DNA from: a virus
Taxonomy: Duplodnaviria > Heunggongvirae > Uroviricota > Caudoviricetes
Reading direction: 5' to 3' (one strand)
Length of the DNA: 24,545 nucleotides
Virus record (IMG/VR): IMGVR_UViG_2579778797_000010
The notes below the pieces were generated by a model. The model was not told the origin of the DNA and made no database searches. It was given only the letters and a program-made list of their open reading frames with translations. The stretch's first letter is position 1; each line of letters opens with the position of its first letter. The translations under genes were made by a program, and so were the position numbers. This document shows, piece after piece, positions 2,447 to 16,177 of this stretch.

Positions 2447-2746
2447 TTTGTCGCTCCATGCGTTTGCTCGTCATCTAGCGGTTAAAATATTACTTCAAAT
2501 CTTACTGCATAAAAGAGGAAAAGTATGAAAGTTTGAGTACATCGACCTTACATACATCTGTCGGTTGCATATCCCTCCTGGATGCCAGCAAGGCTCAATT
2601 TTGTTACGCAATCAACACTATTCATTAAAAACAGGCTTAATATTTGACATAAATCATCAACAAAACACAAAGAGGTCAGACCAGATTGAAACAATAAACA
2701 CGATAATGCAAACTACGCGCCATCGTATCACATGGAAGGTTTACCA

Positions 2747-3157
2747 ATGGCTCAGGCTGCCATTTTTAAAGAAATATTCGATCAAGTGCGTAAAGATTTA
2801 AACTGTGAATTATTTTATTCTGAGCTAAAACGTCACAATATCTCACTTTATATTTACTATTTAGCCACAGATAATATTCACATTGTGTTAGAAAACGACA
2901 ACATAGTGTTAGTAAAAGGACTCAAAAAGGTTGTAAATGTTAAATTCTCCAGAAACAAACATCTTATAGAGACCTCCTATAATAAGTTGAAATCAAAAGA
3001 AATCACATTTCAACAATACAGGGAAAATCTTGCTAAAGCAGGAGTTTTCCGATGGGTTACAAATATCCAGGAACACCAAAGATATTACTATGCCTTTGAT
3101 AACTCATTACTATTTACTGAAAGCATCCAGAAAACTACACAGATCTTACCACGCTAA
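2747..3157 (+). CDS. ydfO: DUF1398-family protein (YdfO/YbcV-like)
   Basis: 136-aa ORF from the internal ATG at 2747 (GGAAGG SD upstream): [30 protein letters not shown]... Position matches ydfO in Qin. Confidence 0.6.
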
Positions 3158-3308
3158 ACCATAACGTCCGGCTTCTCTCACTCCTGAGCCGGACTGCATT
3201 GGTTTAATAAAAACCATCAACAATTGTGATTTAGATATTCGGAACCATTCAAATATAACAAAACCCCGTAAAAACGAGGTTTATGGATAAATTTTATTAT
3301 TGAATACA

Positions 3309-3485
3309 TCAGATTAAATTAATCTTGACATCATAGCTTTCAAGACCCGTCATTTTTTCCCGTGCGGTAAACTGAATACTGGTAACTTCTTTCCCGGTCT
3401 TTTTCTTAAGTTCAATAATTTTTTTTGTTATATATTCAGAAATATCTGCTTCTGCTTTTGTTTTTAAGTTTTCAATATTCATCAT
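3309..3485 (-). CDS. gnsB: GnsA/GnsB-family small protein
   Basis: 58-aa ORF hand-translated codon by codon: MMNIENLKTKAEADISEYITKKIIELKKKTGKEVTSIQFTAREKMTGLESYDVKINLI. Strong AGAGGA SD. Below the ORF-track cutoff. Confidence 0.8.
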   Translation of the reverse strand: MMNIENLKTKAEADISEYITKKIIELKKKTGKEVTSIQFTAREKMTGLESYDVKINLI

Positions 3486-3653
3486 TTCCTCTTTTAGTCT
3501 GTTATGACTTTCCAGTTACACAGTAAGTCGATTATATGGTGCAAACGTGTAAAAGATAAGATGAAACATCGCAATAATCAACATACGATAGTCTAAATTT
3601 TACACAAACAGACAAAGAGAATTTTCCTGAATTATCAATACAATAGCATCAAA

Positions 3654-3884
3654 TCAACTCAAGAGCCTTATTGCTGCTTCCAGAATTTCTTCTGAAGTAA
3701 CATGTCGATCCGCGGCTACATAAATGACTTTATGATCTCCGGTCAGAGATGGAAACCCTGCGGCCATTACAGTAAGGTGTGTTTTTTCGCCATTTGGATA
3801 TTCACGCATGATGGTGTTAACTCCAGTCATCGCTGGCACTACCACTGCTGGTTCAGAGTTAAAAAAAACTATGATTTTTTTCAT
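3654..3884 (-). CDS. Hypothetical protein (76 aa) at the ynfN position between cspI and gnsB
   Basis: ORF 3654-3926 begins at a TTG; first in-frame ATG at 3882-3884 (MKKIIVFFNSEPAVVVPAMTGVNTIMREYPNGEK...). Weak SD. Confidence 0.4.
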   Translation of the reverse strand: MKKIIVFFNSEPAVVVPAMTGVNTIMREYPNGEKTHLTVMAAGFPSLTGDHKVIYVAADRHVTSEEILEAAIRLLS

Positions 3885-3928
3885 GATGTTACCGTAGTAT
3901 GTGAGTATCCATCGAATAGATACCAAGC

Positions 3929-3948
3929 AAAAAAGCTCCCGAAGGAGC
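3929..3948 (-). terminator. Possible intrinsic terminator downstream of cspI
   Basis: Short GC stem GCTCC-CGAA-GGAGC; on the minus strand it is followed by a run of six T. Confidence 0.3.
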
Positions 3949-4155
3949 CTTCATTTTCACTTTTTTAAATCCAACGACAGACGGCTGGCATTTAAGTATT
4001 GTGAAATATTATCAAATGTAATCATCATTGATTTACAAAAGATACATTTTGCCCCGAAAGGATTCATGTCAGAAACATCAAAAGATGATGTTCTATACTG
4101 GGAACCATGACAACACGGGCATCTAAAGTGAATATGGTTTGTAATATTGTCTACC

Positions 4156-4368
4156 TCAAAGCGCCACTACATGAACAGCGGCAGGACCTTTAGGTCCGTT
4201 CTCAATACCAAATTCAACTTCCTGATTCTCAGTTAATGTTTTGAAATCGTTGCTCTGAATTGCTGAGAAATGGACAAACACATCTTTGCTGCCATCTTTC
4301 GGCGTGATGAAACCAAAACCTTTTTCAGGGTTAAACCATTTCACTAAACCAGTCATTTTGTTAGACAT
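4156..4368 (-). CDS. cspI: Cold shock protein CspI
   Basis: 70-aa product [70 protein letters not shown]; ATG at 4366-4368 checked. Confidence 0.95.
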
Positions 4369-4731
4369 AATTATTACCTTTTGAAGAAATTAGCCCTTGG
4401 GCAGAATGGTCCGAAAAAAAATATCAGAGAGAAAAACCAACAAGGAAATCTCAAGAGGTACAAATAATAAAATTATAACAATGACTGCTTCAGATAAATT
4501 TGTAACAAACCAGAACACCATTAACGCATGATTAACCACCCATAGCAAGGATTACTTTTGTAAAGAAAAACACAGCAATGAAAGAATAGCTTTATTTATT
4601 AATAATAACGTGTCATTCTGATTAAGACCTTTTATCTTACCCTTAAGATTTCAGGAGTTTTGGCTCATGGAAGAGTCCTTTTTATTTAAATTTTACATTC
4701 CGCGATGTAAATGTTCCGATTTAATATTACC

Positions 4732-5755
<1,024 letters not shown>

Positions 5756-5759
<4 letters not shown>

Positions 5760-6067
5760 ATATATTTATGATGAGGACGCTCGTGCTTATTGGCAGGATT
5801 TTCAATCTTAAAGGAGTACTGATGCTGCAGATAAGACTCAACTTTTTCTGACAATTTTTCTGCTACTTCCAGGAAGACTTGCCGGACGCTCCTTCTGGCT
5901 GCTGCCTCATAAAACTCCAGCGCAGCTCCTTCAACACGGTCCATGGCGACATCCAGGTCAAAAATTTCACCGTCAAAGCGTTCTTTGTCCTGTAAGGCTA
6001 CAGTTACCGTAACTTTATTCTCAAAATTACGGACTCCTTTCACAACCAGTTCATAGTCTTGAGTCAT
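5756..6067 (-). CDS. Hypothetical protein between holin and endolysin (YdfR-like, 103 aa)
   Basis: ATG at 6065-6067 with GGAGAG SD, 4 nt after the holin stop; translationally coupled to the lysozyme gene. Confidence 0.6.
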
Positions 6068-6071
6068 TGGA

Positions 6072-6287
6072 TTACTCTCCTCTCGCAGCCTTACGCCTGT
6101 CTTCTTTAATCTTGAAATAAAGATTTGTCAGATACGTCAGCAGGCCAAAAACCAGGCTACCCAGCACACCGATTGCAGCCCACTGTGACGGAGTTACTTT
6201 ATCGAGTAACTGCAATGCCCAGAAACCAGCATTACCCGCCGATGTGCCATAGGCAACACCTGTTGTTAACTTATCCATTGATTTCAT
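6072..6287 (-). CDS. Phage-21 S-type pinholin (class II holin) with dual start
   Basis: 71-aa product [71 protein letters not shown]; ATGs at 6285-6287 and 6276-6278 give the Met1/Met4 dual-start motif. Confidence 0.85.
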
Positions 6288-6506
6288 ATCCTCACCCCGA
6301 TGTACACGGATGGTGCAATATGTTTGAAAAGATCGGAGTCTACGGGGTAGTTTTGACAGCACACGCTGTTCTCAACGGCGCTAAAGAAACATACACATTA
6401 AAAATGTGAGTAATTATTTTGAAAGAAAGTCATATATAAAATAATAATACGAGAAATGTTTTCATATTTAGTGTACTGTATACGGCCATTTATACAGGAA
6501 AAGCCT

Positions 6507-6677
6507 ATGTCAGAACGTAAAGACTCAAAATCACGCCGTAATTATCTCGTTAAATGTTCCTGCCCAAACTGCACCCAAGAGTCAGAACACAGTTTTTCAA
6601 GAGTACAAAAAGGTGCCCTTTTGATCTGCCCTCATTGCAACAAAGTATTCCAGACAAATCTTAAAGCTGTAGCCTGA
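6507..6677 (+). CDS. Small zinc-ribbon protein (56 aa; CPNC...CPHC)
   Basis: Internal ATG at 6507 with an AGGAAAAG SD: MSERKDSKSRRNYLVKCSCPNCTQESEHSFSRVQKGALLICPHCNKVFQTNLKAVA. Confidence 0.5.
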   Translation: MSERKDSKSRRNYLVKCSCPNCTQESEHSFSRVQKGALLICPHCNKVFQTNLKAVA

Positions 6678-6736
6678 TTGATTTTATTAGTAACAAGTAT
6701 TTTTTATATTTTAATAATATATTTAAAGCAGATAAT

Positions 6737-6760
6737 AAAAAACCCGCCTGAGCGGGTTTG
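6737..6760. terminator. Bidirectional intrinsic terminator hairpin (between the zinc-ribbon ORF and cspB)
   Basis: AAAAACCCGC-CTGA-GCGGGTTT: GC stem with A-run on one side and T-run on the other. Confidence 0.5.
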
Positions 6761-7040
6761 AGATTGTGGTGCTTTTTGTGGGAGTCATCCACTTACGCAC
6801 TTTGTTTTGCCATGCCAGCAGTTAGCTTCTGCTGTAAAACTATTCATGCAGCAAACCTGCACTTCACCACAATGGTTAGCATACTTTTCCTGATTAAGAT
6901 TTTGCCAAATATGCTGGCCATTGTTTCATGTATTGGACCTCCTTAATTTTTATTAAAGAAATCCAATATTCACTACTCTGTCCGTATCTCTACTCAGGCA
7001 TCAGCCTTCTTCGTTATCGTATACAGACGAGCGATGAATT

Positions 7041-7256
7041 TTAATCAGTAATGATGACATTTGCTGCTGCAGGACCTTTAGCACCACTCTCTATAGAGAA
7101 GGTAACCTTTTGACCTTCAAATAAGGTTCGATAATTATCATTCTGAATCGCAGAAAAATGCACAAACACATCTTTACTACCATCAACAGGAGAAATAAAG
7201 CCGAAACCTTTATCAGCGTTAAACCATTTTACTAAACCAGTCATTTTATTTGACAT
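7041..7256 (-). CDS. cspB: Cold shock protein CspB
   Basis: 71-aa product [71 protein letters not shown]; start and stop verified. Confidence 0.95.
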
Positions 7257-7556
7257 TCTACATTCCTTAACTTGAGCCTTTCGGCATAAATGGTTTGCAT
7301 AACAGAAACGACTTCGTACTTAATTGGAGAGACTCAAAGAAGGAATAAGTGAATAACACCTGAAATGAGAACTGCTTTAGTAAACTACTTCGTATATCGT
7401 CTGTTCTTCAAACCGACGCAATCATTAACGCATAGTTGAACATATGAAGCAATGTTTATTTTAGACATCCAGCCATCTTCAACCCCATCAAAAAACTATA
7501 GCTTTCTTCAGGAACGTGTGTATAGTGCGCCAAGTTATCAGTATTAAGGAATTTTT

Positions 7557-7769
7557 TTGTCCCGTAAAATGACAGGAATTGTCAAAACCTTTGACGGCAA
7601 AAGCGGCAAGGGTCTTATCACCCCATCCGATGGTCGTATCGATGTCCAGCTTCATGTTTCAGCGCTCAATCTCCGCGATGCAGAAGAAATTACCACCGGA
7701 TTACGCGTGGAATTTTGCCGGATAAATGGTCTGCGTGGCCCTTCAGCTGCCAATGTTTACCTTTCATGA
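7557..7769 (+). CDS. cspF: Cold shock protein homologue CspF
   Basis: 70-aa product [70 protein letters not shown]. First codon is TTG (7557-7559) with AAGGA upstream. Confidence 0.85.
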
Positions 7770-7823
7770 GCTATATTAAAGCTTTAATTTCAGGCCCCAT
7801 CGGATCACACATGGAGAGTTTTT

Positions 7824-7913
7824 ATGAATAACCCCGTCTGTCTTGATGACTGGTTGATTGGCTTTAAAAGCTTATGCTGTACTTTGGCCGTAATAGCTCT
7901 GCTAATAATATAA
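7824..7913 (+). CDS. Hypothetical 29-aa hydrophobic peptide downstream of cspF
   Basis: ATG at 7824 five nt after GGAGAG; hand-translated [29 protein letters not shown]; lies between cspF and the terminator hairpin. Confidence 0.3.
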
Positions 7914-8057
7914 TAAGCAGACTCATTGTGTTTAGGGACATTGTACTGGAAGAAAACATTTTAAACATCAGGCAAATAACCAAGTCACCAGCTAAATAAT
8001 AAGTTAACAGACATGAGTCCCGGGATGAGATTCAACATTACCATTGCCCCATTTAAA

Positions 8058-8095
8058 GCACAAAACCCGCTCATCAGCGGGTTTTCTACTTTTTC
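8058..8095. terminator. Bidirectional intrinsic terminator (cspF 3' end; tR'-like for the leftward late transcript)
   Basis: AAAACCCGC-TCATCA-GCGGGTTTT hairpin with T-runs on both strands. Confidence 0.55.
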
Positions 8096-8130
8096 TTAAC
8101 GTCGGGTATACAAAGCCCATCATTGAAAAA

Positions 8131-8159
8131 ATTTTATCCATATTTTTTGAAAAATGCAA
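8131..8159 (-). promoter_or_regulatory. Candidate late promoter (pR'-like) just downstream of Q
   Basis: Minus strand reads TTGCAT, 17 bp, TAAAAT; lies ~35 bp after the Q stop and ~50-70 bp before the terminator hairpin. Confidence 0.35.
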
Positions 8160-8190
8160 ACATCATGTCGCCATCTTCAGCAAAAATCAT

Positions 8191-8943
8191 TTATCTCGTC
8201 ACCTTCCTCAATTGCGCTTCCGCGTATGCTTCTTCCTGCCAGCACTTTGTTACCAGTTTACCAATGACGTCCGCATACCCCTTATACCACTGATAATCGG
8301 TCAGGTCTGGTACCAGCTTCTGGACATGACGTCGTGCCAGCGTGGTCGGTAAACGACTAAACCGGTTTCCATTACAACGCCCACAAATCTTATATACCGG
8401 TACGCCATGAAACCGGGTTCTTTTTTCATCCAGAACAATCCCTTTACCCTTACACCCTCTGCACGCTGTGCTGGCTTCGCCCTTACCATGGCAATGCTGA
8501 CATAGTTCCTTCACCCATTCTTCCTTGATTACAGATTCCCCGCGTCTGTAGTGTTTCACCACTTCGCGCAATACATTATAAAATCCCGTACCTGAACAAT
8601 GCTCACAGCGAGCCTTACTTGCCGCAGACCTGGAGTAATCAGCAAAGGCAAAACTCACGAGGTAAGGAATAATCTGTAACCGGATTTCTTCACTCAATTT
8701 GTTCAATGTCGGGTTATCCAGTGCCATCGCGTAATTTAGCAGGCCTTCAATCGCAAACTGAGGGTCCTGAACACCAACTTTTGCCAGAAATAAGGCCAAC
8801 CCAAGTGGTGCTTTCGACTGCACCATCCCCTGCGCTGCCATTACATCCGTAATTGTTAAACAACCGGTGCCTGTCGCTGGAGCGTCATCGCTCAATTTTG
8901 GAGATTTTGGGGAGTAATATTTTGGTAAGGCTTCAAGGTTCAT
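8191..8943 (-). CDS. quuQ: Late-gene antiterminator Q (QuuQ-like)
   Basis: 250 aa from the ATG at 8941-8943 (MNLEALPKYYSPKSPKLSDDAPATG...), Cys-rich zinc-binding region (CEHCSGTG, CQHCHGKG, CRGCKGKG, CGRCNG). Confidence 0.9.
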   Translation of the reverse strand: MNLEALPKYYSPKSPKLSDDAPATGTGCLTITDVMAAQGMVQSKAPLGLALFLAKVGVQDPQFAIEGLLNYAMALDNPTLNKLSEEIRLQIIPYLVSFAFADYSRSAASKARCEHCSGTGFYNVLREVVKHYRRGESVIKEEWVKELCQHCHGKGEASTACRGCKGKGIVLDEKRTRFHGVPVYKICGRCNGNRFSRLPTTLARRHVQKLVPDLTDYQWYKGYADVIGKLVTKCWQEEAYAEAQLRKVTR

Positions 8944-8956
8944 GCTCGTTCTCCAC

Positions 8957-10045
8957 TTACGCCAGTACGCCAATTGCCAGCGCGCGATCGATAAAACGAA
9001 ATATCAGCTCCAGTTGGGAGCCATACTTATCTTCAAATGCCACTGTATCCGTATGCAGCTCGTTGTGATGCTTTCTGCACAAAGGCAACACAAAGAGATC
9101 ATGTGCTTTTGTTCCCATTCCGCCCTGCCCGTGACCAATCAGATGATGCGGATCGTCGGCTGGCATACCGCAGCAAGCACACGGCTGTGTCTTAACCCAA
9201 CGTGTGTATTTCTCCTTAACCCAGCGGCGACGTTTAGGCAGCTTCATGAAAGATTCCGGAGACTCTGGATCAACGGTGATGCTTACCACCGTCTTTTCCT
9301 GTGGTGATTTTTGTTGCTGGTGGGCGTAAGGCAACGGTGCAAGATTTTTTGTGCGTTGTTTCAATATGCTGGTGGCGGTCTGCTCTCCCGGTACGATGTC
9401 GCTTTCGCGGTACACCGAGCAGATTTTTTCCGCTGGTAATCCCAGCGAACGACGCGATACAGCCTCAGGTAGTGCATCCACCACCTGATTGCAGACCGCC
9501 CACCAGGATAATTCAGCCAAAGATAATTCCCGCTCCTGCGTACCGCTTATTGCGTGACGGATGACGTCAATCACCCATGCTGTCAGATTTTGTTGAGCAA
9601 GCAGCTCCAGTGATTCCGATGTCTGGTCACGCAGTTGGTTGTCGCAGTGCCAGCACAACACCATTGCGCCGGTACCATAACGGTGAATGACTGTTTCAGT
9701 GTGATGGTAATCGCCATTAGGCCACTGGCAGGATGTAACATGACGTAATAGCCAGTCGGACAATGCGCCAACGCCGCCAGCAGCACGAATCACCCGTTCG
9801 TTACTAAAAAACGGCAGCAATGTTTTGTCTTCCGCCAGCGGCTGGCGAACGGCAGGAACGACTCCGGATGGCAGATTACGCATGCTTTTTGGTTCCGGTT
9901 CCACCAGCACTCGAGGATTATGAAATATCTGTATGGATTCACGGCCCGGCTTAAGGACCACCAGCCCAAGCTCAGGCACCAGAACAGGTCTAAGTAATAC
10001 CCGCACGTTACCTCCAGATCCGTTGCTGGAAAGTGCGGGACGCAC
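8957..10045 (-). CDS. ydfU: DUF968-family prophage protein (YdfU-like) with HNH-like Cys/His motif
   Basis: 362-codon ORF (start uncertain); C-terminal CACCGMPADDPHHLIGHGQGGMGTKAHD...CRKHHNELH motif; position between rem and Q as in Qin. Confidence 0.7.
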   Translation of the reverse strand: MRPALSSNGSGGNVRVLLRPVLVPELGLVVLKPGRESIQIFHNPRVLVEPEPKSMRNLPSGVVPAVRQPLAEDKTLLPFFSNERVIRAAGGVGALSDWLLRHVTSCQWPNGDYHHTETVIHRYGTGAMVLCWHCDNQLRDQTSESLELLAQQNLTAWVIDVIRHAISGTQERELSLAELSWWAVCNQVVDALPEAVSRRSLGLPAEKICSVYRESDIVPGEQTATSILKQRTKNLAPLPYAHQQQKSPQEKTVVSITVDPESPESFMKLPKRRRWVKEKYTRWVKTQPCACCGMPADDPHHLIGHGQGGMGTKAHDLFVLPLCRKHHNELHTDTVAFEDKYGSQLELIFRFIDRALAIGVLA

Positions 10046-10286
10046 GTGGTGGGCGTTCGGAATAAGGCAGCCTGACAGAGATTATCCAGTGCCGATAGTC
10101 GAGACTGAGAGCTTTCTTAACCTCGAACCCGCGCCTGCGGTAAGAATGAATCAGCCATTCGGCCTGTTCTGCAGTGCATGGAGGGTGCTGGAACCATTCA
10201 GACTTGAATGCGTGAGAATACCGCCCGTGCGTGCAGGCAAGAACGGGCGAATTATCAGAATTGTAATATTTTGCGTTGCGTGCCAT
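10008..10286 (-). CDS. rem: Rem-like small protein
   Basis: ATG at 10284-10286; product MARNAKYYNSDNSPVLACTHGRYSHAFKSEWFQHPP... Overlaps the upstream ORF by ~38 nt. Confidence 0.6.
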   Translation of the reverse strand: MARNAKYYNSDNSPVLACTHGRYSHAFKSEWFQHPPCTAEQAEWLIHSYRRRGFEVKKALSLDYRHWIISVRLPYSERPPRASRTFQQRIWR

Positions 10287-10352
10287 CGGTTTTCTCCGGT
10301 GGCACGGTGTTACTCAGCGGGAGTTCAGCCCCGCGCAAGATTGTAGATGAGT

Positions 10353-10604
10353 TTATTCTCCTGAAAAAGCAGAAAAGCCAGCTTTTATTCCGATCTCTTT
10401 CAATGCCTGTAATGAAGTGACAAACTCACCTTCGCGCAAGATAAATCCGTCCGTGACCCGAGCATCCACAAAATTAATTAACGCAGCCCCATTCTTTCGC
10501 AAACACATAATGCGGTAATGACTAACAAGATTTCCATTTTCAACGCACACAGCATAGAGGCCATCTTCACAAAAAATTTTACGCAGTTCTTCGATGTTCA
10601 TCAT
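10353..10604 (-). CDS. Hypothetical protein (83 aa), no family recognised
   Basis: Tandem ATGs at 10599-10604 with GGAAGG 8 nt upstream; sits between the relBE-hokD terminator and rem. MMNIEELRKIFCEDGLYAVCVENGNLVSHYRIMCLRKNGAALINFVDARVTDGF... Confidence 0.5.
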   Translation of the reverse strand: MMNIEELRKIFCEDGLYAVCVENGNLVSHYRIMCLRKNGAALINFVDARVTDGFILREGEFVTSLQALKEIGIKAGFSAFSGE

Positions 10605-10719
10605 CAGAATCCTTCCGGATAATTAGCTCTCCCCTTTAAGGGACCATCCCTCTTATCCCTGCGCGCTACTTAAGTATTTTTGATTCTATTCCGGCACCGT
10701 CCAGAACTTCAAACGCGTT

Positions 10720-10752
10720 GAAAATAAAAACAAAAACCCGCCGAAGCGGGTT
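10720..10752 (-). terminator. Intrinsic terminator of the relB-relE-hokD operon
   Basis: Minus strand: AACCCGC-TTCG-GCGGGTT followed by TTTTGTTTTTATTTT. Confidence 0.6.
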
Positions 10753-10820
10753 AAGTGCGGGTGCGTTGAGGATGCCTGCCACATCAGAGGTGGCGAGGGA
10801 TTTCTCCCCCGCCGGGTCTC

Positions 10821-10976
10821 TTACTCCTCAGGTTCGTAAGCTGTGAAGACAGCGACCTCCGTCTGGCCGGTTCGGATTCGTACCTCGCAGAGGTCTTTCC
10901 TCGTTACCAGTGCCGTCACTATGACGGTTAAACAGATGACGATCAGGGCGATTAACATCGCCTTTTGCTGCTTCAT
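10821..10976 (-). CDS. hokD: Hok-family membrane toxin HokD (RelF)
   Basis: Hand-translated codon by codon to MKQQKAMLIALIVICLTVIVTALVTRKDLCEVRIRTGQTEVAVFTAYEPEE (51 aa); below the ORF-track cutoff. Confidence 0.95.
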   Translation of the reverse strand: MKQQKAMLIALIVICLTVIVTALVTRKDLCEVRIRTGQTEVAVFTAYEPEE

Positions 10977-11047
10977 AGCCTGCTTCTCCTGTCAACGCAA
11001 AGCAGAAGTGTCACCTTCGGTGCGAAACAGAGATGTCATGCTTTGGT

Positions 11048-11335
11048 TCAGAGAATGCGTTTGACCGCCTCGCTATATACTTCCGAGCGTTCTCTTTTCC
11101 CAACAGAAATCACGAAAACGACAACTTTCTCGTCTATAACCTGGTATACAAGGCGATAGCCTGAAGACCGGAGCTTAATCTTGTAACAATCAGGCATACC
11201 ACGGAGCTTGTTTGCTTCAATCCGGGGTGACTCAAGTACTTCAACCAGCTTCTTTTTCAACTGTTCACGTACCGTCGAGCCCAGCTTTCGCCATTCCTTT
11301 AGTGCCCGCTCGTCAAAATCCAGAAAATACGCCAT
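11048..11335 (-). CDS. relE: RelE mRNA-interferase toxin
   Basis: 95-aa product MAYFLDFDERALKEWRKLGSTVREQLKKKLVEVLESPRIEANKLRGMPDCYKIKLRSSGYRLVYQVIDEKVVVFVISVGKRERSEVYSEAVKRIL. Confidence 0.95.
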   Translation of the reverse strand: MAYFLDFDERALKEWRKLGSTVREQLKKKLVEVLESPRIEANKLRGMPDCYKIKLRSSGYRLVYQVIDEKVVVFVISVGKRERSEVYSEAVKRIL

Positions 11336-11574
11336 CAGAGTTCATCCAGCGTCACACGTACTGGCTTAGGATTACGAAGCCGTTCTTTCACTATCTCCAC
11401 AAGTTCAGCATCTTCATCACTCAGGAGTGTCTGTTTGAACGGCAAGCGTTCATTGTCAGCGATATACTCGAGCATGAGACGAAGCGCTTCAGAAGGAGTT
11501 ACACCCATTTTTTCAAGCGCGGCGTAAGAACGCGCTTTAAGTTCATCGTCAATACGCAGGTTAATGCTACCCAT
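11335..11574 (-). CDS. relB: RelB antitoxin
   Basis: 79-aa product MGSINLRIDDELKARSYAALEKMGVTPSEALRLMLEYIADNERLPFKQTLLSDEDAELVEIVKERLRNPKPVRVTLDEL; stop overlaps the relE start. Confidence 0.95.
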   Translation of the reverse strand: MGSINLRIDDELKARSYAALEKMGVTPSEALRLMLEYIADNERLPFKQTLLSDEDAELVEIVKERLRNPKPVRVTLDEL

Positions 11575-11585
11575 GTCTTACACCT

Positions 11586-11611
11586 CTTGTAATTACAAAT
11601 GTCATTACAAG
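11586..11611. promoter_or_regulatory. relO-type operator palindrome in the relBE promoter
   Basis: CTTGTAATTACAAATGTCATTACAAG: inverted CTTGTAAT / ATTACAAG arms immediately upstream of relB. Confidence 0.65.
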
Positions 11612-11904
11612 TATCGCACTACAACATGCTTAGGGCAAGTCACGAAGGAAGTCAGAAAGTAGTCGTAAGAACGGTGATCACTGTCCGCTTTGTGCCAGGA
11701 GCAGCCATTGCTAAGTCCATCCTGTATTGTGCAGGTCAGCTCGTTTTTAAAGAGTCCGGCCATCATCTTACTGGTACAGACACCATATACTTTGTGACGG
11801 TCAGGCTACATATGCACAACTCAACTTATTCATCTATTTTTTGCTTTAGCATGTCAGTGTTGCTTTCTCGTCGGCGGGTGAGCGGTGACCTGACCTGTCG
11901 ATAA
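11599..11904 (+). CDS. Hypothetical ORF divergent from relB (ydfV position); coding status doubtful
   Basis: 101-codon ORF whose ATG lies inside the relO operator; low-complexity, non-protein-like composition. Confidence 0.25.
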   Translation: MSLQVSHYNMLRASHEGSQKVVVRTVITVRFVPGAAIAKSILYCAGQLVFKESGHHLTGTDTIYFVTVRLHMHNSTYSSIFCFSMSVLLSRRRVSGDLTCR

Positions 11905-12056
11905 AGGAACGTAGCACGTTTTATGCAACACCCGCATGCGGCAGAAAATTATTGCCGAACGTTTACCCCTGTCAACAAGCTTTACTTTCTGAGGCGCGCC
12001 AGCCCGCGAGGAAAACAATCTGAACATCAAACAATTAATGACACAAGAAATACGAT

Positions 12057-12083
12057 TAAAGATTTTTTTGTGCATGCCGATAG
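12057..12083 (+). promoter_or_regulatory. Sigma-28 (FliA) promoter of flxA
   Basis: TAAAGATT, 11 bp, GCCGATAG matches the sigma-28 consensus TAAAGTTT-N11-GCCGATAA; ~24 bp upstream of the flxA ATG. Confidence 0.65.
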
Positions 12084-12106
12084 TGCTTTTTTAAAAGGAG
12101 AAATCT

Positions 12107-12439
12107 ATGTCTGTCACAATTCAGGGAAATACCTCAACCGTTATTTCAAACAACTCCGCCCCGGAAGGAACATCAGAAATAGCCAAAATCACAAGACAAA
12201 TTCAGGTGCTGACTGAAAAGCTTGGGAAAATCTCATCGGAAGAGGGGATGACGACACAGCAGAAAAAAGAAATGGCTGCATTGGTACAGAAGCAAATTGA
12301 AAGCCTCAGGGCTCAACTGGAGCAGTTGTTAAGGCAGCAGGCAGAGAAAAAGAATAAAGACGCGACAGTTCAGCCTGATAAAAAAGAAGAGAAAAAAGAC
12401 GATACAAATACCGCTGGCACCATTGATATTTACGTCTAA
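12107..12439 (+). CDS. flxA: FlxA (FliA-regulated protein)
   Basis: 110-aa product MSVTIQGNTSTVISNNSAPEGTSEIAKITRQIQVLTEKLGKISSEEGMTTQQKKEMAALVQKQIESLRAQLEQLLRQQAEKKNKDATVQPDKKEEKKDDTNTAGTIDIYV. Confidence 0.95.
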   Translation: MSVTIQGNTSTVISNNSAPEGTSEIAKITRQIQVLTEKLGKISSEEGMTTQQKKEMAALVQKQIESLRAQLEQLLRQQAEKKNKDATVQPDKKEEKKDDTNTAGTIDIYV

Positions 12440-12453
12440 GTGACAGCCGTATT

Positions 12454-12476
12454 GTGGCCCTCATCGGGCCACTTTT
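12454..12476 (+). terminator. Intrinsic terminator of flxA
   Basis: GTGGCCC-TCATC-GGGCCAC followed by TTTTCG. Confidence 0.7.
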
Positions 12477-12639
12477 CGCCATCAGCCTTTTCTTTAAAGA
12501 CATATTATCTTTGTATCATTTCTGATAGTTAACATTACAAGATATAAGTAATGGACGCACTCCCAATTAGTCTATTTAAATCGCCACGAGTTTAACTGAC
12601 AACCCATGATCAATTATGAATTGCAACTATTTCTGTAGT

Positions 12640-14280
12640 CACTTTTGTGGGGACAGTCCACAAAACTGCCAACTTCCGCTTCTTGCTCTTAGCGGACATT
12701 AGCATAGGCTATTTACCATAACGCCTCATTACGCGCACCGCCCAGACTGACTCAGCGCGTTTCTGGCATATCCCCGGTAAAACAAGTAACAAACCACCCG
12801 AAAATGAACACCAGAAACGCGACTTAAGAATCTACCCTATGAATGGATATGCACTCAACCGAATCGATCTTGGTTTCAATCTATTTTATCGGGATCAGGC
12901 TTCTTTTTAGGTAACTTCGGGGGCTTAACTTGCTGATGACTTTGCGTTCGGCGCGTAAGCCAGGGATGGTCAGCTTTAGATTTAACATAGTATTTTGAGC
13001 GTAAATCAATACGGGCATTATCCACTCGTTCATGGACACTCTTTTCATCATCCAGTGGTATAGGCTCCGGGCCATCAACATACTTTTCCCAGCCCAGCGC
13101 TTTCCCGTCATACAGAACGTTAATTTCACCGTCAAAGTTCTCACATACAGTAACAACTGAATGCCTAAGTCGATATCCCCGGCCCTCACTGCGTACCTGA
13201 AACGCACTGCTTTTGTACTGGAAAGTGAGATTTTTAGACAGAACGCGCTTCGCCTGTAGGCTGAAGATATAACCCAGTTCCTCTTCAGAATGGTGCACAT
13301 CAAGATGAGCATTATCAGTAGTACGAGGCGACGTAGCGAACCGGTTGTTATAGGCTTCAATAAAGGTCGGCAACCATGCATTTGCTGTTTCAATATCACT
13401 GATATTCTGAAGCCGCATTTCTTTGACCAGCCTGTCCTGTAGTGTCTGATTGGCGCGCTCTACCCGCCCTTTTGCCTGCGGGCTGTTGGCATGGATTGGC
13501 TCGATGCCCAGTGTCTTTATCGCACGAGTGAACTGGGTCAGCTCACCTTCCCGCTCTGGGTTATTTACCCTGAATATACTGTGTCTATCAGAGTAGAGAG
13601 CGAGCGGTACGCCATGATCATTAAGGTAACCCCGGAGGGTTTCCATGTAAGCCCGGGTTGTTTCAGCAGGCACAAAACGCAACGCCATCAACGCACTGGT
13701 GGCATCATCAATGAAAACGATCAGTGTACATCTGGGGCCTCGATTTTCAAACCAGTCATGAGGTGAGCCATCAATCTGGATCAGTTCACCGTAAGATGGT
13801 CGTCGCATGCGGCGTTGATATATACGGGCAATTTTACGACGGCGTTCACGCCATAACCCCTCTTCTATCATCCACTTTCTGAGAGTTTCAACGGATAAAG
13901 ATAAACCGTGTATCTCGCGCAATTTTTCGCACGCAAACGTAGGTCCAAAATCAGCGTAACGGCCTTTGAGGAGTGAAATTACTGTTGCTCTGAATTCAGT
14001 AGAAAAGGAATTATTAGGACGCTTTCCACGTCGGTGGGAAACCAGACCAGAAGGCCCTTCATTTCTATACCGTTGCACCAGACGTTTAACCTGCCGAATA
14101 GAAATGCCAATGCGTGCCGCAGCTTGTTCCTGAGTAATATGTCGATTAATTGACTCCTGAATAATCTGAAGTCGGTGGAGTTCCTTATGACTCATCGTAA
14201 CAGTCTCTTTGATCATGAAAAATCCCCCAGAGAATTGTCTGGGGACATTTTAGAATGGTTCAAAGGGGACATTACAGCTT
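12640..14280 (-). mobile_element. Insertion element carrying an rve/DDE transposase (IS481- or ISNCY-like); boundaries approximate
   Basis: Single large transposase gene with HTH N-terminus. GGGGACA motifs at 12648-12654 and at 14241-14247 and 14265-14271. Terminal inverted repeats could not be resolved by eye. Confidence 0.45.
12876..14216 (-). CDS. DDE transposase with integrase-core (rve) domain and N-terminal HTH
   Basis: 446 aa; HTH (ITQEQAAARIGISIRQVKRLVQRY), catalytic candidates in ELIQIDGSPHDW, ALYSDRHSIF and PQAKGRVERANQTLQDRL (D, D, E spacing typical of retroviral-integrase-type transposases). Confidence 0.85.
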   Translation of the reverse strand: MIKETVTMSHKELHRLQIIQESINRHITQEQAAARIGISIRQVKRLVQRYRNEGPSGLVSHRRGKRPNNSFSTEFRATVISLLKGRYADFGPTFACEKLREIHGLSLSVETLRKWMIEEGLWRERRRKIARIYQRRMRRPSYGELIQIDGSPHDWFENRGPRCTLIVFIDDATSALMALRFVPAETTRAYMETLRGYLNDHGVPLALYSDRHSIFRVNNPEREGELTQFTRAIKTLGIEPIHANSPQAKGRVERANQTLQDRLVKEMRLQNISDIETANAWLPTFIEAYNNRFATSPRTTDNAHLDVHHSEEELGYIFSLQAKRVLSKNLTFQYKSSAFQVRSEGRGYRLRHSVVTVCENFDGEINVLYDGKALGWEKYVDGPEPIPLDDEKSVHERVDNARIDLRSKYYVKSKADHPWLTRRTQSHQQVKPPKLPKKKPDPDKID

Positions 14281-14669
14281 GGTGTTAACAATAGCCTGCT
14301 TCTCCTTGCCTTCCGGCACTCGCGACAGATTATGTTTAGACGACTGTCGTAGCGACGTATTTCTCCGTCAGGTAATGACCAGATAAGGTCCGGATCAACC
14401 ACAGCAGGTTTCTTCACCTTTGCCCTCGAGAGTTTTTTGCGGGCGTTTTGCCAGTCCTTACGCGCCTGTTCAGACGGGAATAACCCGTAACCAGAGCTGT
14501 ATACATCGCCACTGGCAACCAGCTCTCTGGCCAGAACGCTCATCAGATATCTTGTTGCCCCAGTTTTAGCTTCCAGTTGTCGTAACGTCTCGCGCCCACT
14601 CTGGCGTACGAGTTCCACCACCTGCCCTTTAATTTTTTCCCGCTCTTCTTGTGTAAAAACTTTTGCCAC
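14250..14669 (-). CDS. Hypothetical protein (139 aa) co-transcribed downstream of the replication initiator; C-terminus may be altered by the IS insertion
   Basis: GTG start at 14667-14669 with strong AGGAGG SD, 40 nt after the rep stop. Last ~9 codons are encoded by the GGGGACA-containing sequence next to the transposase. Confidence 0.5.
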   Translation of the reverse strand: MAKVFTQEEREKIKGQVVELVRQSGRETLRQLEAKTGATRYLMSVLARELVASGDVYSSGYGLFPSEQARKDWQNARKKLSRAKVKKPAVVDPDLIWSLPDGEIRRYDSRLNIICRECRKARRSRLLLTPSCNVPFEPF

Positions 14670-14709
14670 AAGTCCTCCTGAACATTACTTTATACCCTAA
14701 AATCAACAC

Positions 14710-15675
14710 TTATCCCCTGAAACCAGGCGGAATTTCTGTATCCGGTTCAGAAATATGATTCACACAACGCTGTACAGGTGAACGTCCCAGGCGGATGACC
14801 AGTTCGTCCCATTTTTCGCGGAGTTTTGACGGGCTCATGATGTTTTTTACCCAGAATTGATCTCGCTGTACCCGACCAAACATTTCGCAAATTTGTCTGT
14901 GGCTTCTGCCATCCAGCATCCGCATTGTGCGCACGTCATTGGCCCAGGCTGTCCAGTTAGGCTCTTTTGGTCGCATGATCTCTCCATCGTCGCTGGCAGC
15001 CTGTTCGTAAAGGTTCACGATCCGCCCCCAAATCCACTGCGCACACGCCAAATCCTCCCTGCTACCCCACTGGCGTTTTTTCGCACTAAACACAACCGCG
15101 TCGGGGTTCCGGGTTAAAAAATCCTGTTCAGCGGTCTGCGGGTCCGGTTGCGAAGCTTCCGGACGAAAAGTGTTTTTATTCTCTGTAGTAATCTCTGTTG
15201 TATTCTCTGTAAGATTATCAGGCCATTTTGACCCGATGACATTGGGTCGTTTTGAACCAATGGAGCGTTTCATTTTGACCTCTTCCATCGTGTCATTTTG
15301 ACCTGATGGAGCGGCGCATTTTAAACCGATGGATTCGCTCAATTTGCCACCATCTAAAAGCTCGCTCCCGTAGTTGATCGTGTAGAAATTGGTCATATCG
15401 CGCTTTGATTTATTGAGCTTTTCACAACGCAAAAGCCCCAGCGTTTTCAGACTTGCAAACGCGCGCTTTAACGTTGACTCTGACCAGAATGGGAACTGTT
15501 CCAGCCATTGTTCCGTTGTGTTGTAAATCCAGCGAACACCATCACATTCCATGCCGGAATTGGTATCTCTCAACCAGTAATGCAACTGCTGCAACACAAT
15601 GGCTTCATTTAAGCCAATCTTCATCGCAAGCTGTGTGTTTATAACCAGTGGGCGTTCAGCAAAAAGAAGGCTCAT
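14710..15675 (-). CDS. Phage replication initiator (lambda O-like, origin-binding; ori iterons embedded)
   Basis: 321 aa from the ATG at 15673-15675 (alternative TTG at 15729). N-terminal winged-helix-like region; the coding sequence contains six ~23-bp iterons, as ori-lambda does inside O. Confidence 0.6.
   Translation of the reverse strand: MSLLFAERPLVINTQLAMKIGLNEAIVLQQLHYWLRDTNSGMECDGVRWIYNTTEQWLEQFPFWSESTLKRAFASLKTLGLLRCEKLNKSKRDMTNFYTINYGSELLDGGKLSESIGLKCAAPSGQNDTMEEVKMKRSIGSKRPNVIGSKWPDNLTENTTEITTENKNTFRPEASQPDPQTAEQDFLTRNPDAVVFSAKKRQWGSREDLACAQWIWGRIVNLYEQAASDDGEIMRPKEPNWTAWANDVRTMRMLDGRSHRQICEMFGRVQRDQFWVKNIMSPSKLREKWDELVIRLGRSPVQRCVNHISEPDTEIPPGFRG
15224..15354. repeat. Origin-type iteron array: six direct repeats at ~23-bp spacing (core CATTTTGACC) inside the rep gene
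   Basis: Copies start at 15224, 15248, 15271, 15294, 15317 and 15340. Preceded by three 12-bp direct repeats CTCTGTNNNANT at 15181-15216. Confidence 0.75.
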
Positions 15676-16177
15676 AATTCCATCCAGCTTTTTGTTGGTA
15701 TTGCTGTCGATACGCAAGTTTGAAAGCAATTGCTTTTTCTATAAGTTCGTCAGTTTCACGATCCACTACGGCAGGATCAGCAAAAAGCAGTCCGGACTCC
15801 ACCACATCGCCATATTCTTTGTTTAACCCGGCGATCATGTACGTGATGCTTTTTCCGTCACTAATTTCACGATACAACCTGAAATCATTAATCCGAATAG
15901 CCTCCATAATTGCAGGCACTAGCGCCGTGAACTTTTCACGCTTATCCCTGGTGTCGATAGCCTTCCAGCGTTCGAATATCTTCACTCGATTAACGCCAAG
16001 TGCTCGCTGATCAACCGCGCCACCTTCATCTGTGACACGCTGAACATCGATGTTCGGGCGCTCTTTCAAAGCCCAGAATGCTTCAGTGATTAATATCGTC
16101 GCCTGCTCCTGTGTCATTCCTGGTCGACATATCCAGGCATCCAGAGCCTCACGAGCCTGTTCAGGAGTGATTTTCAT
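15656..16177 (-). CDS. YdaT-like protein (CII analogue of Rac-type immunity regions)
   Basis: 173 aa, ATG at 16175-16177, directly downstream of the Cro-like dicC; contains a motif (KREKFTALVPAIMEAI) resembling what I recall of Rac YdaT. Confidence 0.5.
   Translation of the reverse strand: MKITPEQAREALDAWICRPGMTQEQATILITEAFWALKERPNIDVQRVTDEGGAVDQRALGVNRVKIFERWKAIDTRDKREKFTALVPAIMEAIRINDFRLYREISDGKSITYMIAGLNKEYGDVVESGLLFADPAVVDRETDELIEKAIAFKLAYRQQYQQKAGWNYEPSFC

Follow-up and report, generated by a model that had tools for sequence, protein, structure and literature searches.

A probable Q-dependent late cassette of the λ type, with a short terminated leader RNA, in a Qin-like prophage of Escherichia coli

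The DNA analysed here, the window, is a stretch of 24,545 nucleotides from a Caudoviricetes record (IMG/VR IMGVR_UViG_2579778797_000010). Alignment to E. coli K-12 MG1655 and its annotation identify it as a Qin-like cryptic prophage of E. coli. Window positions 2669-13060 are 99% identical to K-12 1636969-1647358, and within 7900-8300 the sole difference lies at 8122; near the late cassette a window position is converted to K-12 numbering by adding 1,634,298. A segment of ~2.8 kb (13061-15897) is missing from the K-12 Qin region, the alignment picking up at 15898 with the K-12 side contiguous. Of 5,426 complete E. coli genomes, 1,815 match window 7700-8300, and at least 15 of these are 100% identical. 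The GenBank phage PhiR42_1 (ECOR13) carries the Q protein of the window, a cassette of the K-12 type with AACGAT, and the csp cargo of the window.

The antiterminator gene ydfT/quuQ lies on the minus strand (8191-8943), encoding 250 amino acids from the ATG at 8943 according to Pfam, PDB and K-12 annotation, and ends with a TAA stop codon at 8193-8191. Beyond it are the candidate promoter pR' and the terminator tR', followed by a cargo slot (6740-7913) that extends towards the lysis genes and was mapped from K-12 annotation, Pfam, Rfam and a terminator scan. The slot contains ynfS (7824-7913, plus strand), cspF (7557-7769, plus strand) and cspB (7041-7256, minus strand). Pfam finds the CSD domain here, and Rfam places a cspA thermoregulator at 7025-7417 on the minus strand, cspB having a 5' UTR of the cspA type. 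A bidirectional terminator (6740-6759) closes the slot, and just past it is ynfU, a zinc ribbon (6507-6677, plus strand; Pfam YnfU). The lysis cassette essQ-ydfR-rrrQ-rzpQ/rzoQ (6287-4732, minus strand), recognized from Pfam (phage 21 holin, phage lysozyme and DUF2514) and K-12 annotation, is the presumed target of Q-modified transcription. A sequence-only reading of this DNA had placed cspF in antisense, cspB in sense and a zinc-ribbon ORF in antisense between the terminator and the lysis genes; K-12 annotation and Pfam confirm this arrangement, to which ynfS on the plus strand is added.

Two further hairpins lie in this part of the prophage. That at 6740-6759 is called by the scan on the minus strand after cspB, and among the entries available from the Term-seq supplement is an end that reads its plus-strand version, downstream of ynfU. 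The other (6920-6985, minus strand) is a very stable, unannotated stem-loop of 17 bp (−18 kcal/mol, z = −5.6), some 60-120 nt past the cspB stop codon. Its end coincides with the 3' end that is the strongest of the region in Term-seq (K-12 1641224/1641226, 0.6-1.2 million reads), and its 3' arm contains AAGGAGG with an ATG 7 nt further on.

QuuQ matches Pfam PF03589 (E=4e-54) together with DnaJ_CXXCXGXG, and in the PDB it matches the solved structures of Qλ, 7UBM (E=5e-36, covering the N- and C-terminal parts) and 4MO1. PF03589 corresponds to the Qλ family, and Q21 and Q82 belong to other families (PMC9388147). Neither PF06530 nor PF06323, the families of the Q21 and Q82 types, was found by Pfam in QuuQ, which returned PF03589 and the DnaJ zinc motif alone. 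By these matches QuuQ is a member of the Qλ family. Of the phages that the sequence-only reading had proposed for comparison of their pR'/qut regions (21, 82 and λ), it is λ that the cassette resembles: it is of the λ/P22/φ80 type, and not of the 21 or 82 type. Alignment shows that the zinc-ribbon arm of QuuQ has an insertion of ~40 amino acids relative to the Q proteins of λ and P22 (residues ~121-160). In consequence QuuQ has four CxxCxGxG motifs, DnaJ-like according to Pfam, where λ and P22 Q have a single zinc ribbon; relative to λ Q the zinc-binding motifs are doubled. The insertion is shared with the Q proteins of φ80 and mEp460, in which it is longer still. In λ Q this arm touches positions 11-13 of the 13-bp Q-binding element (QBE), while the helix-turn-helix contacts positions 1-4 (PMC9388147). 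A literature search on ydfT/quuQ returned nothing relevant; a review of Qin is silent on the late promoter, and a paper on the pR' of Stx phages is a general treatment in which a Q of the QuuQ type is not covered.

The sequence-only reading had noted a σ70-like promoter just after Q on the minus strand, and its sequence elements are indeed present. The −35 hexamer TTGCAT (8159-8154), nearly invariant in the alignment of close relatives, begins 31 nt past the Q stop codon, a distance that is 31-32 nt in homologues with 63-100% identical Q. It is separated by 17 nt (TTTTCAAAAAATATGGA, 8153-8137) from the −10 hexamer TAAAAT (8136-8131), which is identified by sequence, scan and alignment; the whole is conserved in relatives. 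The promoter scan reports it in a register shifted by one base, TTTGCA-18-TAAAAT. Hexamers of this kind are not uncommon: 10 promoter-like sites occur in 5000-10000 against 9.2 expected from shuffled sequence, which is chance level, so that hexamers alone are no proof of a promoter.

What distinguishes this site is the sequence 6 nt beyond the −10 element. In λ pR' the sequence AACGAT is a −10-like element that is re-bound by σ70, causing RNA polymerase to pause for loading of Q, as established by the Roberts and Hochschild laboratories. The window has AATGATGGG at this position and K-12 has AACGATGGG, which is exactly the nine bases of λ at the same spacing from the −10. Thus λ pR' reads TTGACT-17-TAAATT-tgactc-AACGATGGG, P22 reads TTGACT-17-TAAATT-tgactc-AACGATGGA and K-12 Qin TTGCAT-17-TAAAAT-6-AACGATGGG, the window having the same layout with AATGATGGG. 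In the GenBank record of P22 the 5' end of the late RNA is annotated at the first A of AACGAT. By homology to λ and P22 the predicted start in the window is A8124, and the putative σ70 pause element AATGAT occupies +1 to +6 (8124-8119), followed by GGG (8118-8116). The C-to-T change that converts AACGAT into AATGAT keeps the key positions A2 and T6, which are invariant in 45 leaders, and AATGAT is the natural form in phage mEp460. The pause element AAYGAT with its GGG is the most diagnostic feature of the cassette, and was absent from the sequence-only reading. By itself AAYGATGGG is not significant (one match against 0.54 expected), but the window has a single copy of the composite TTGCAT-17-TAAAAT-6-AAYGAT, where 0.02 would be expected by chance. 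The logic of such late cassettes in Q systems has been summarised (PMC9388147).

The spacer of the promoter is identical between Qin and λ at 11 of 17 positions, and within it TTCAAAAA…TGG is kept throughout the QuuQ clade (Q 63-100% identical). The record of φ80 has a Q-binding site annotated at the equivalent position. Taken together, the likeness to λ, the conservation in the clade and the φ80 annotation make the 17-nt spacer a probable QBE. Known features of λ provide the framework here: its QBE sits inside the promoter spacer, as described by the Roberts laboratory, and a −35-like TTGACT beside the pause element is used by σ region 4 in the Q-loading complex (work of the Hochschild and Roberts laboratories). 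Qin differs from λ in the latter respect, the equivalent of that TTGACT being TTTTTC. Immediately 5' of the −35 hexamer (window 8161-8168, minus strand) there is a CATGAT(G) sequence that is common to λ (gcATGATa-TTGACT; locus L002 of our set, ~745-752), P22 and the whole QuuQ clade (gaCATGATGc-TTGCAT). Among the entries listed in the Cappable-seq, ROSE, RNET-seq and SMRT-Cappable-seq supplements there is none for an RNA start near K-12 1642422 on the minus strand.

Downstream of the pause element is a G+C-rich hairpin followed by a U tract, the intrinsic terminator tR' (8085-8055, minus strand), identified by sequence, folding and K-12 Term-seq. The stem-loop AAAACCCGC-TGATGA-GCGGGTTTT (8085-8062, minus strand) is followed by GTGCTTT; as RNA it has a AAAACCCGC/GCGGGUUUU stem, a UGAUGA loop and a GUGCUUU tail. 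The hairpin spans 46 to 69 nt beyond the −10 element, in agreement with the ~50-70 nt of the sequence-only reading. The terminator scan calls the hairpin on the plus strand only, missing it on the minus strand because the tail has just four consecutive T. Term-seq of K-12 places a 3' end at 1642356 on the minus strand, classed as 'orphan' (Adams et al. 2021, PMC7815308 supplement 1) and present in two or more of the three lists for growth conditions, where its read counts average 103,591 and 55,368 (PMC7815308). This is C8058 of the window, 8 nt past the stem, as expected for intrinsic termination, and the same lists hold no plus-strand 3' end at the hairpin (PMC7815308). The Term-seq end shows that the terminator is used in vivo on the minus strand in K-12. 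With the start at A8124, as assigned by homology, the predicted RNA is 67 nt long. RNAfold gives −27.9 kcal/mol (z = −6.1) for a predicted 70-nt RNA, whose fold has two elements, a stem-loop at the 5' end and the hairpin of the terminator.

The terminator had been described as strong. This has to be qualified by the U tract, which in Qin is interrupted (UUUUGUGCUUU) and in most close relatives is U6-U7. One of the Term-seq lists has a further minus-strand 3' end 168 nt on, at window 7890 (K-12 1642188; PMC7815308), antisense to ynfS and behind a weak hairpin (~7895-7921) that has no U tract; it may result from read-through of pR'/tR' transcription, or may be a processed end. The interrupted U tract suggests more leakage here than in relatives, and together with this 3' end hints at a leaky tR'.

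How general is this arrangement? We compared 80 IMG/VR loci whose Q proteins share 93-100% identity with QuuQ; they reduce to 42 distinct versions of the region. All 42 keep the −35, the −10, AACGATGGG and a terminator, and wherever a perfect stem could be called its end falls at +57 to +63. The stem undergoes compensatory changes (CCCGC/GCGGG, CCTCGC/GCGAGG, CTCGC/GCGAG and ACCGC/GCGGT, with G·U pairs as well), while the terminator loops and the linker are free to vary. A more distant set comprised 80 loci from GTDB taken at one genome per species, with Q 33-100% identical, from Escherichia, Enterobacter, Kosakonia, Xenorhabdus, Serratia, Pectobacterium, Erwinia and other genera. In most of these Enterobacterales loci the order is a −35, 16-18 nt, a −10, 5-8 nt, NANNNT (usually then GGG) and a terminator. 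Kosakonia, Atlantibacter and Buttiauxella share with E. coli the hexamers and the 17 nt between them, as well as the 6-nt gap and AACGATGGG. A scan for promoter plus pause element was passed by 76 GTDB and phage loci, yielding 57 unique leaders that were used for statistics. The length of the leader is mostly ~60-75 nt; the 194-nt leader of λ is exceptional, and is shared with SF6 and a few others.

Some loci depart from this description. Seven Qλ cassettes of the Klebsiella/Citrobacter/Enterobacter type (L092, L140 and L161-L165) were left out of the statistics. They have a −10-like hexamer (AATCGT or GATTAT, then GGG) just 3 nt past the −10, and the geometry of the pause element may differ in this group. 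No recognisable cassette was found behind the Q homologue of mEp013. In six GTDB assemblies (L171-L176: Pseudomonas, Psychrobacter, Tardiphaga, Oceanobacillus, a Segatella MAG and a Pseudomonadales MAG) the Q gene and the stretch with the pR' leader are those of λ, and because a λ-identical stretch occurs in such unrelated assemblies these are most likely contamination with λ DNA.

The likeness between relatives stops at the U tract. Beyond it the 80 close loci fall into at least 13 unrelated junction classes, including the Qin type with csp genes, loci in which a holin follows almost immediately, and loci encoding proteins that lack known function. In a further class, that of a Stx2c phage whose Q is 94% identical, the slot holds stx2c A and B together with a DNA methylase and a lipoprotein-like ORF. 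This variety agrees with the suggestion of the sequence-only reading that the cold-shock genes had been inserted. On comparison of these sequences, cspB, cspF, ynfS and ynfU are seen to occupy a hypervariable slot equivalent to the stx slot of Stx phages. In several distant cassettes of the Qλ type tRNA genes come straight after tR' (L008 ~3440-3520, L093 2060-2135 and L096 1813-2111).

The Qin cassette can be set beside those of well-studied phages. It resembles λ pR'-qut-tR', the source of the 6S RNA, in having a PF03589 Q, a promoter directly after Q with the related spacer, a 6-nt gap followed by AACGATGGG (K-12) or AATGATGGG (window), and an intrinsic terminator, then lysis genes. It differs in the position of tR' (+40 to +67 in Qin, +194 in λ), in lacking the −35-like TTGACT beside the pause element and in the size of the cargo before the holin (~1.8 kb compared with ~0.4 kb). 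The cassettes of P22 (gene 23/P-late) and φ80 (gp17/pR') are closer in their dimensions, with short leaders of ~60-75 nt and a terminator near the promoter as in Qin, and their GenBank records annotate pR', a qut or Q-binding site and tR' at matching relative positions. The long zinc arm of φ80 Q is another point in common with QuuQ. Outside the core elements, however, the identity of both to Qin is low and neither has csp cargo, and φ80 has AACGCT and a 7-nt gap. The Stx2c phages have a nearly identical promoter, pause element and terminator. In Stx phages cargo between tR' and the lysis genes is expressed by Q-dependent read-through (general idea in PMC6266700); in the Stx2c phages this is the DNA methylase and stx2c A/B rather than csp, and the U7 tract is uninterrupted. 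In sum, the layout of the Qin cassette appears from its sequence to be homologous to those of λ, P22 and φ80.

We interpret the site as the Q-dependent late cassette of a Qin-like lambdoid prophage, comprising pR', the QBE, the σ70 pause element and tR', and put the probability of this at about 0.85. The late promoter-terminator of the Q type proposed in the sequence-only reading is thereby supported, by the Qλ-family Q, the λ/P22-like pause element, the Term-seq end and the conservation. Might the hairpin instead terminate the Q-gene (early-right) transcript, with the hexamers as chance matches in AT-rich sequence and no start at this position? Term-seq supplies a 3' end only, promoter-like sites occur at the rate of shuffled sequence and no start-site entry is among those listed in the K-12 start-mapping supplements, all of which would be compatible with this. 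Yet a chance origin does not account for a layout of promoter and AACGATGGG that E. coli shares with Kosakonia, Atlantibacter and Buttiauxella and that matches λ and P22, for a composite motif with an expectation of 0.02, or for the annotated RNA 5' end at the homologous site of P22, and we consider this explanation very improbable. It is a separate matter that the 3' end seen in vivo could in principle come from Q-gene transcripts entering from upstream. The hairpin might also serve chiefly as a bidirectional terminator for the convergent plus-strand genes cspF and ynfS, since A and T runs flank the stem on both sides and the scan calls the plus strand. However, it lies ~290 nt beyond the cspF stop codon, the Term-seq lists have no plus-strand 3' end there, and phages devoid of csp genes have a terminator at an equal distance from pR'. 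For these reasons a plus-strand terminator was rejected, its likelihood being very small.

The same stretch contains an ORF of 51 amino acids (8004-8159, minus strand), annotated as a 'hypothetical protein' in many RefSeq genomes and in phage PhiR42_1. But translation would begin at the TTG of the −35 hexamer, before the RNA is predicted to start, the frame runs through the terminator, and similarity is gone past the U tract so that the C-terminal third is not conserved. We rejected it as a coding sequence; that the region encodes this protein is scarcely credible, and the ORF is probably an annotation artefact. A different proposal leaves the cassette intact and adds to it: the 67-nt RNA might act in trans as a small RNA besides its role as the target of Q. 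The precedent is IsrK, an RNA that the Salmonella prophage Gifsy-1 produces from a site just past antQ and that switches on translation of its own longer, read-through form (PMC4825925). Its position and layout are the same: the promoter follows Q, the terminator is leaky and the RNA occurs in a short and a long form (PMC4825925; Gifsy-1 map), and there is a full-length though weak match to the Rfam isrK model (RF01394) at 8060-8126 on the minus strand. The read count at the end of the RNA in K-12 is sizeable, and the RNA has two stable hairpins. Nevertheless, the match scores 18.8 bits (E=0.024 in a search of 141 nt), far under the gathering score of 50, and no Rfam family reaches its gathering score at the cassette site. 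Moreover the Q of Gifsy-1 is annotated as similar to that of phage 82, from another Q family, making homology unlikely, and the cargo beyond tR' is not conserved, so that a conserved cis target is unlikely also. A function of this kind is thus a rather unlikely addition. IsrK (RF01394) is likewise a short terminated RNA from a promoter after a Q-like gene, with partial read-through downstream (PMC4825925), and differs in having a demonstrated function in trans, none being known for the Qin RNA. Because the Gifsy-1 Q resembles that of phage 82, IsrK is a positional analogue of the Qin leader RNA and not a homologue; it shows that leader RNAs in such a position are able to have functions of their own.

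The leader RNA has a further feature, a predicted 5' stem-loop (8124-8098, minus strand) found by RNAfold and by covariation across leaders of the Qλ type. In λ, P22, φ80, Qin and nearly all of these leaders the AACG(A) at +1 to +4/5 has its complement, (U)CGUU, within +19 to +29, and the GGG after the pause element is usually paired too. In the window AAUG pairs with CGUU (+1-4 with +24-27) and UGGG with CCCG (+6-9 with +19-22). Where the 5' end changes its partner tends to follow: AACAAU and AACACU have a UGUU partner in all five leaders that carry them, compared with 12% of AACG leaders, and other matched variants are AAUGA/UCAUU, AAUAA/UUAU, CAUG/CAUG and AAGGA/UUCUU. The 5'-end pairing is seen in the window (8098-8124, minus strand) and in loci L002, L004-L008, L089-L096 and L097-L170.

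Since the MAFFT alignment of the leaders is ungapped and has the 3' partners out of register, we evaluated the stem by cross-class, shuffle and minimum-energy tests in place of counting covariation by column. Of the 57 unique leaders, 52 can form a Watson-Crick stem of 4 bp or more that joins +1-6 to +13-31; the rate is 38% when 5' ends are matched with leaders from another class and 23% on shuffling, figures to be read in the light of the pairing having been spotted by eye before testing, of leaders that are not phylogenetically independent, and of stems that are short. When +1 to +32 is folded to minimum energy, 43 of 55 leaders have a paired 5' end, where shuffling everything but the pause element leads one to expect 17. 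Stems requiring G·U on the sense RNA number seven (the window included) and those requiring A·C two, an excess that points to pairing of RNA rather than DNA. We found no mention of the stem in structural and σ-pausing papers or by full-text search, a scope that leaves aside the older λ literature. That leaders of the Qλ type carry a conserved 5'-terminal stem-loop, in which +1 to +5 (with the GGG) pair with a co-varying partner at +19 to +29, is put forward tentatively, as a proposal to which we give somewhat less than an even chance. If the stem is selected and undescribed, pR' leaders would encode a DNA pause signal and an RNA structure in the same bases. It might shield the long late transcript and the short RNA from decay that depends on the 5' end, or limit backtracking after the pause.

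The operation of the cassette may be envisaged as follows. σ70 RNA polymerase would initiate at about A8124, and σ70 would then re-bind the −10-like AATGAT at +1 to +6, causing a pause in early elongation. Without Q the polymerase would escape and stop at the hairpin and U tract, giving the 67-nt RNA that ends at C8058. With QuuQ, binding of the promoter spacer and loading onto the paused polymerase would confer resistance to termination; this Q-dependent read-through of tR' we infer by analogy. The extended transcript would cross tR' and the cargo, where it would be sense for cspB but antisense for ynfS, cspF and ynfU, and on its way to essQ-ydfR-rrrQ-rzpQ the polymerase would also need to get past the cspB terminator (6759-6740). 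Because the prophage is cryptic, the switch may never fire.

Our analysis points to an unannotated but ordinary late switch of the λ type, and its kind is already known. It gives an identity to the abundant 'orphan' 3' end of K-12 at 1642356 on the minus strand, and predicts an unannotated prophage RNA of 67 nt. If QuuQ is expressed, the joint switching-on of cspB and the Qin lysis genes would be explicable. The natural change of AACGAT to AATGAT and the weak U tract offer ready tests of the pause element and of terminator strength, and the co-varying 5' stem is a testable lead on the loading of Q or the stability of late mRNA. Finally, stx2c in the Stx2c phages is under the same Q-pR'-tR' module, its Q being 94% identical, so that the harmless K-12 copy could be a model of the toxin switch.
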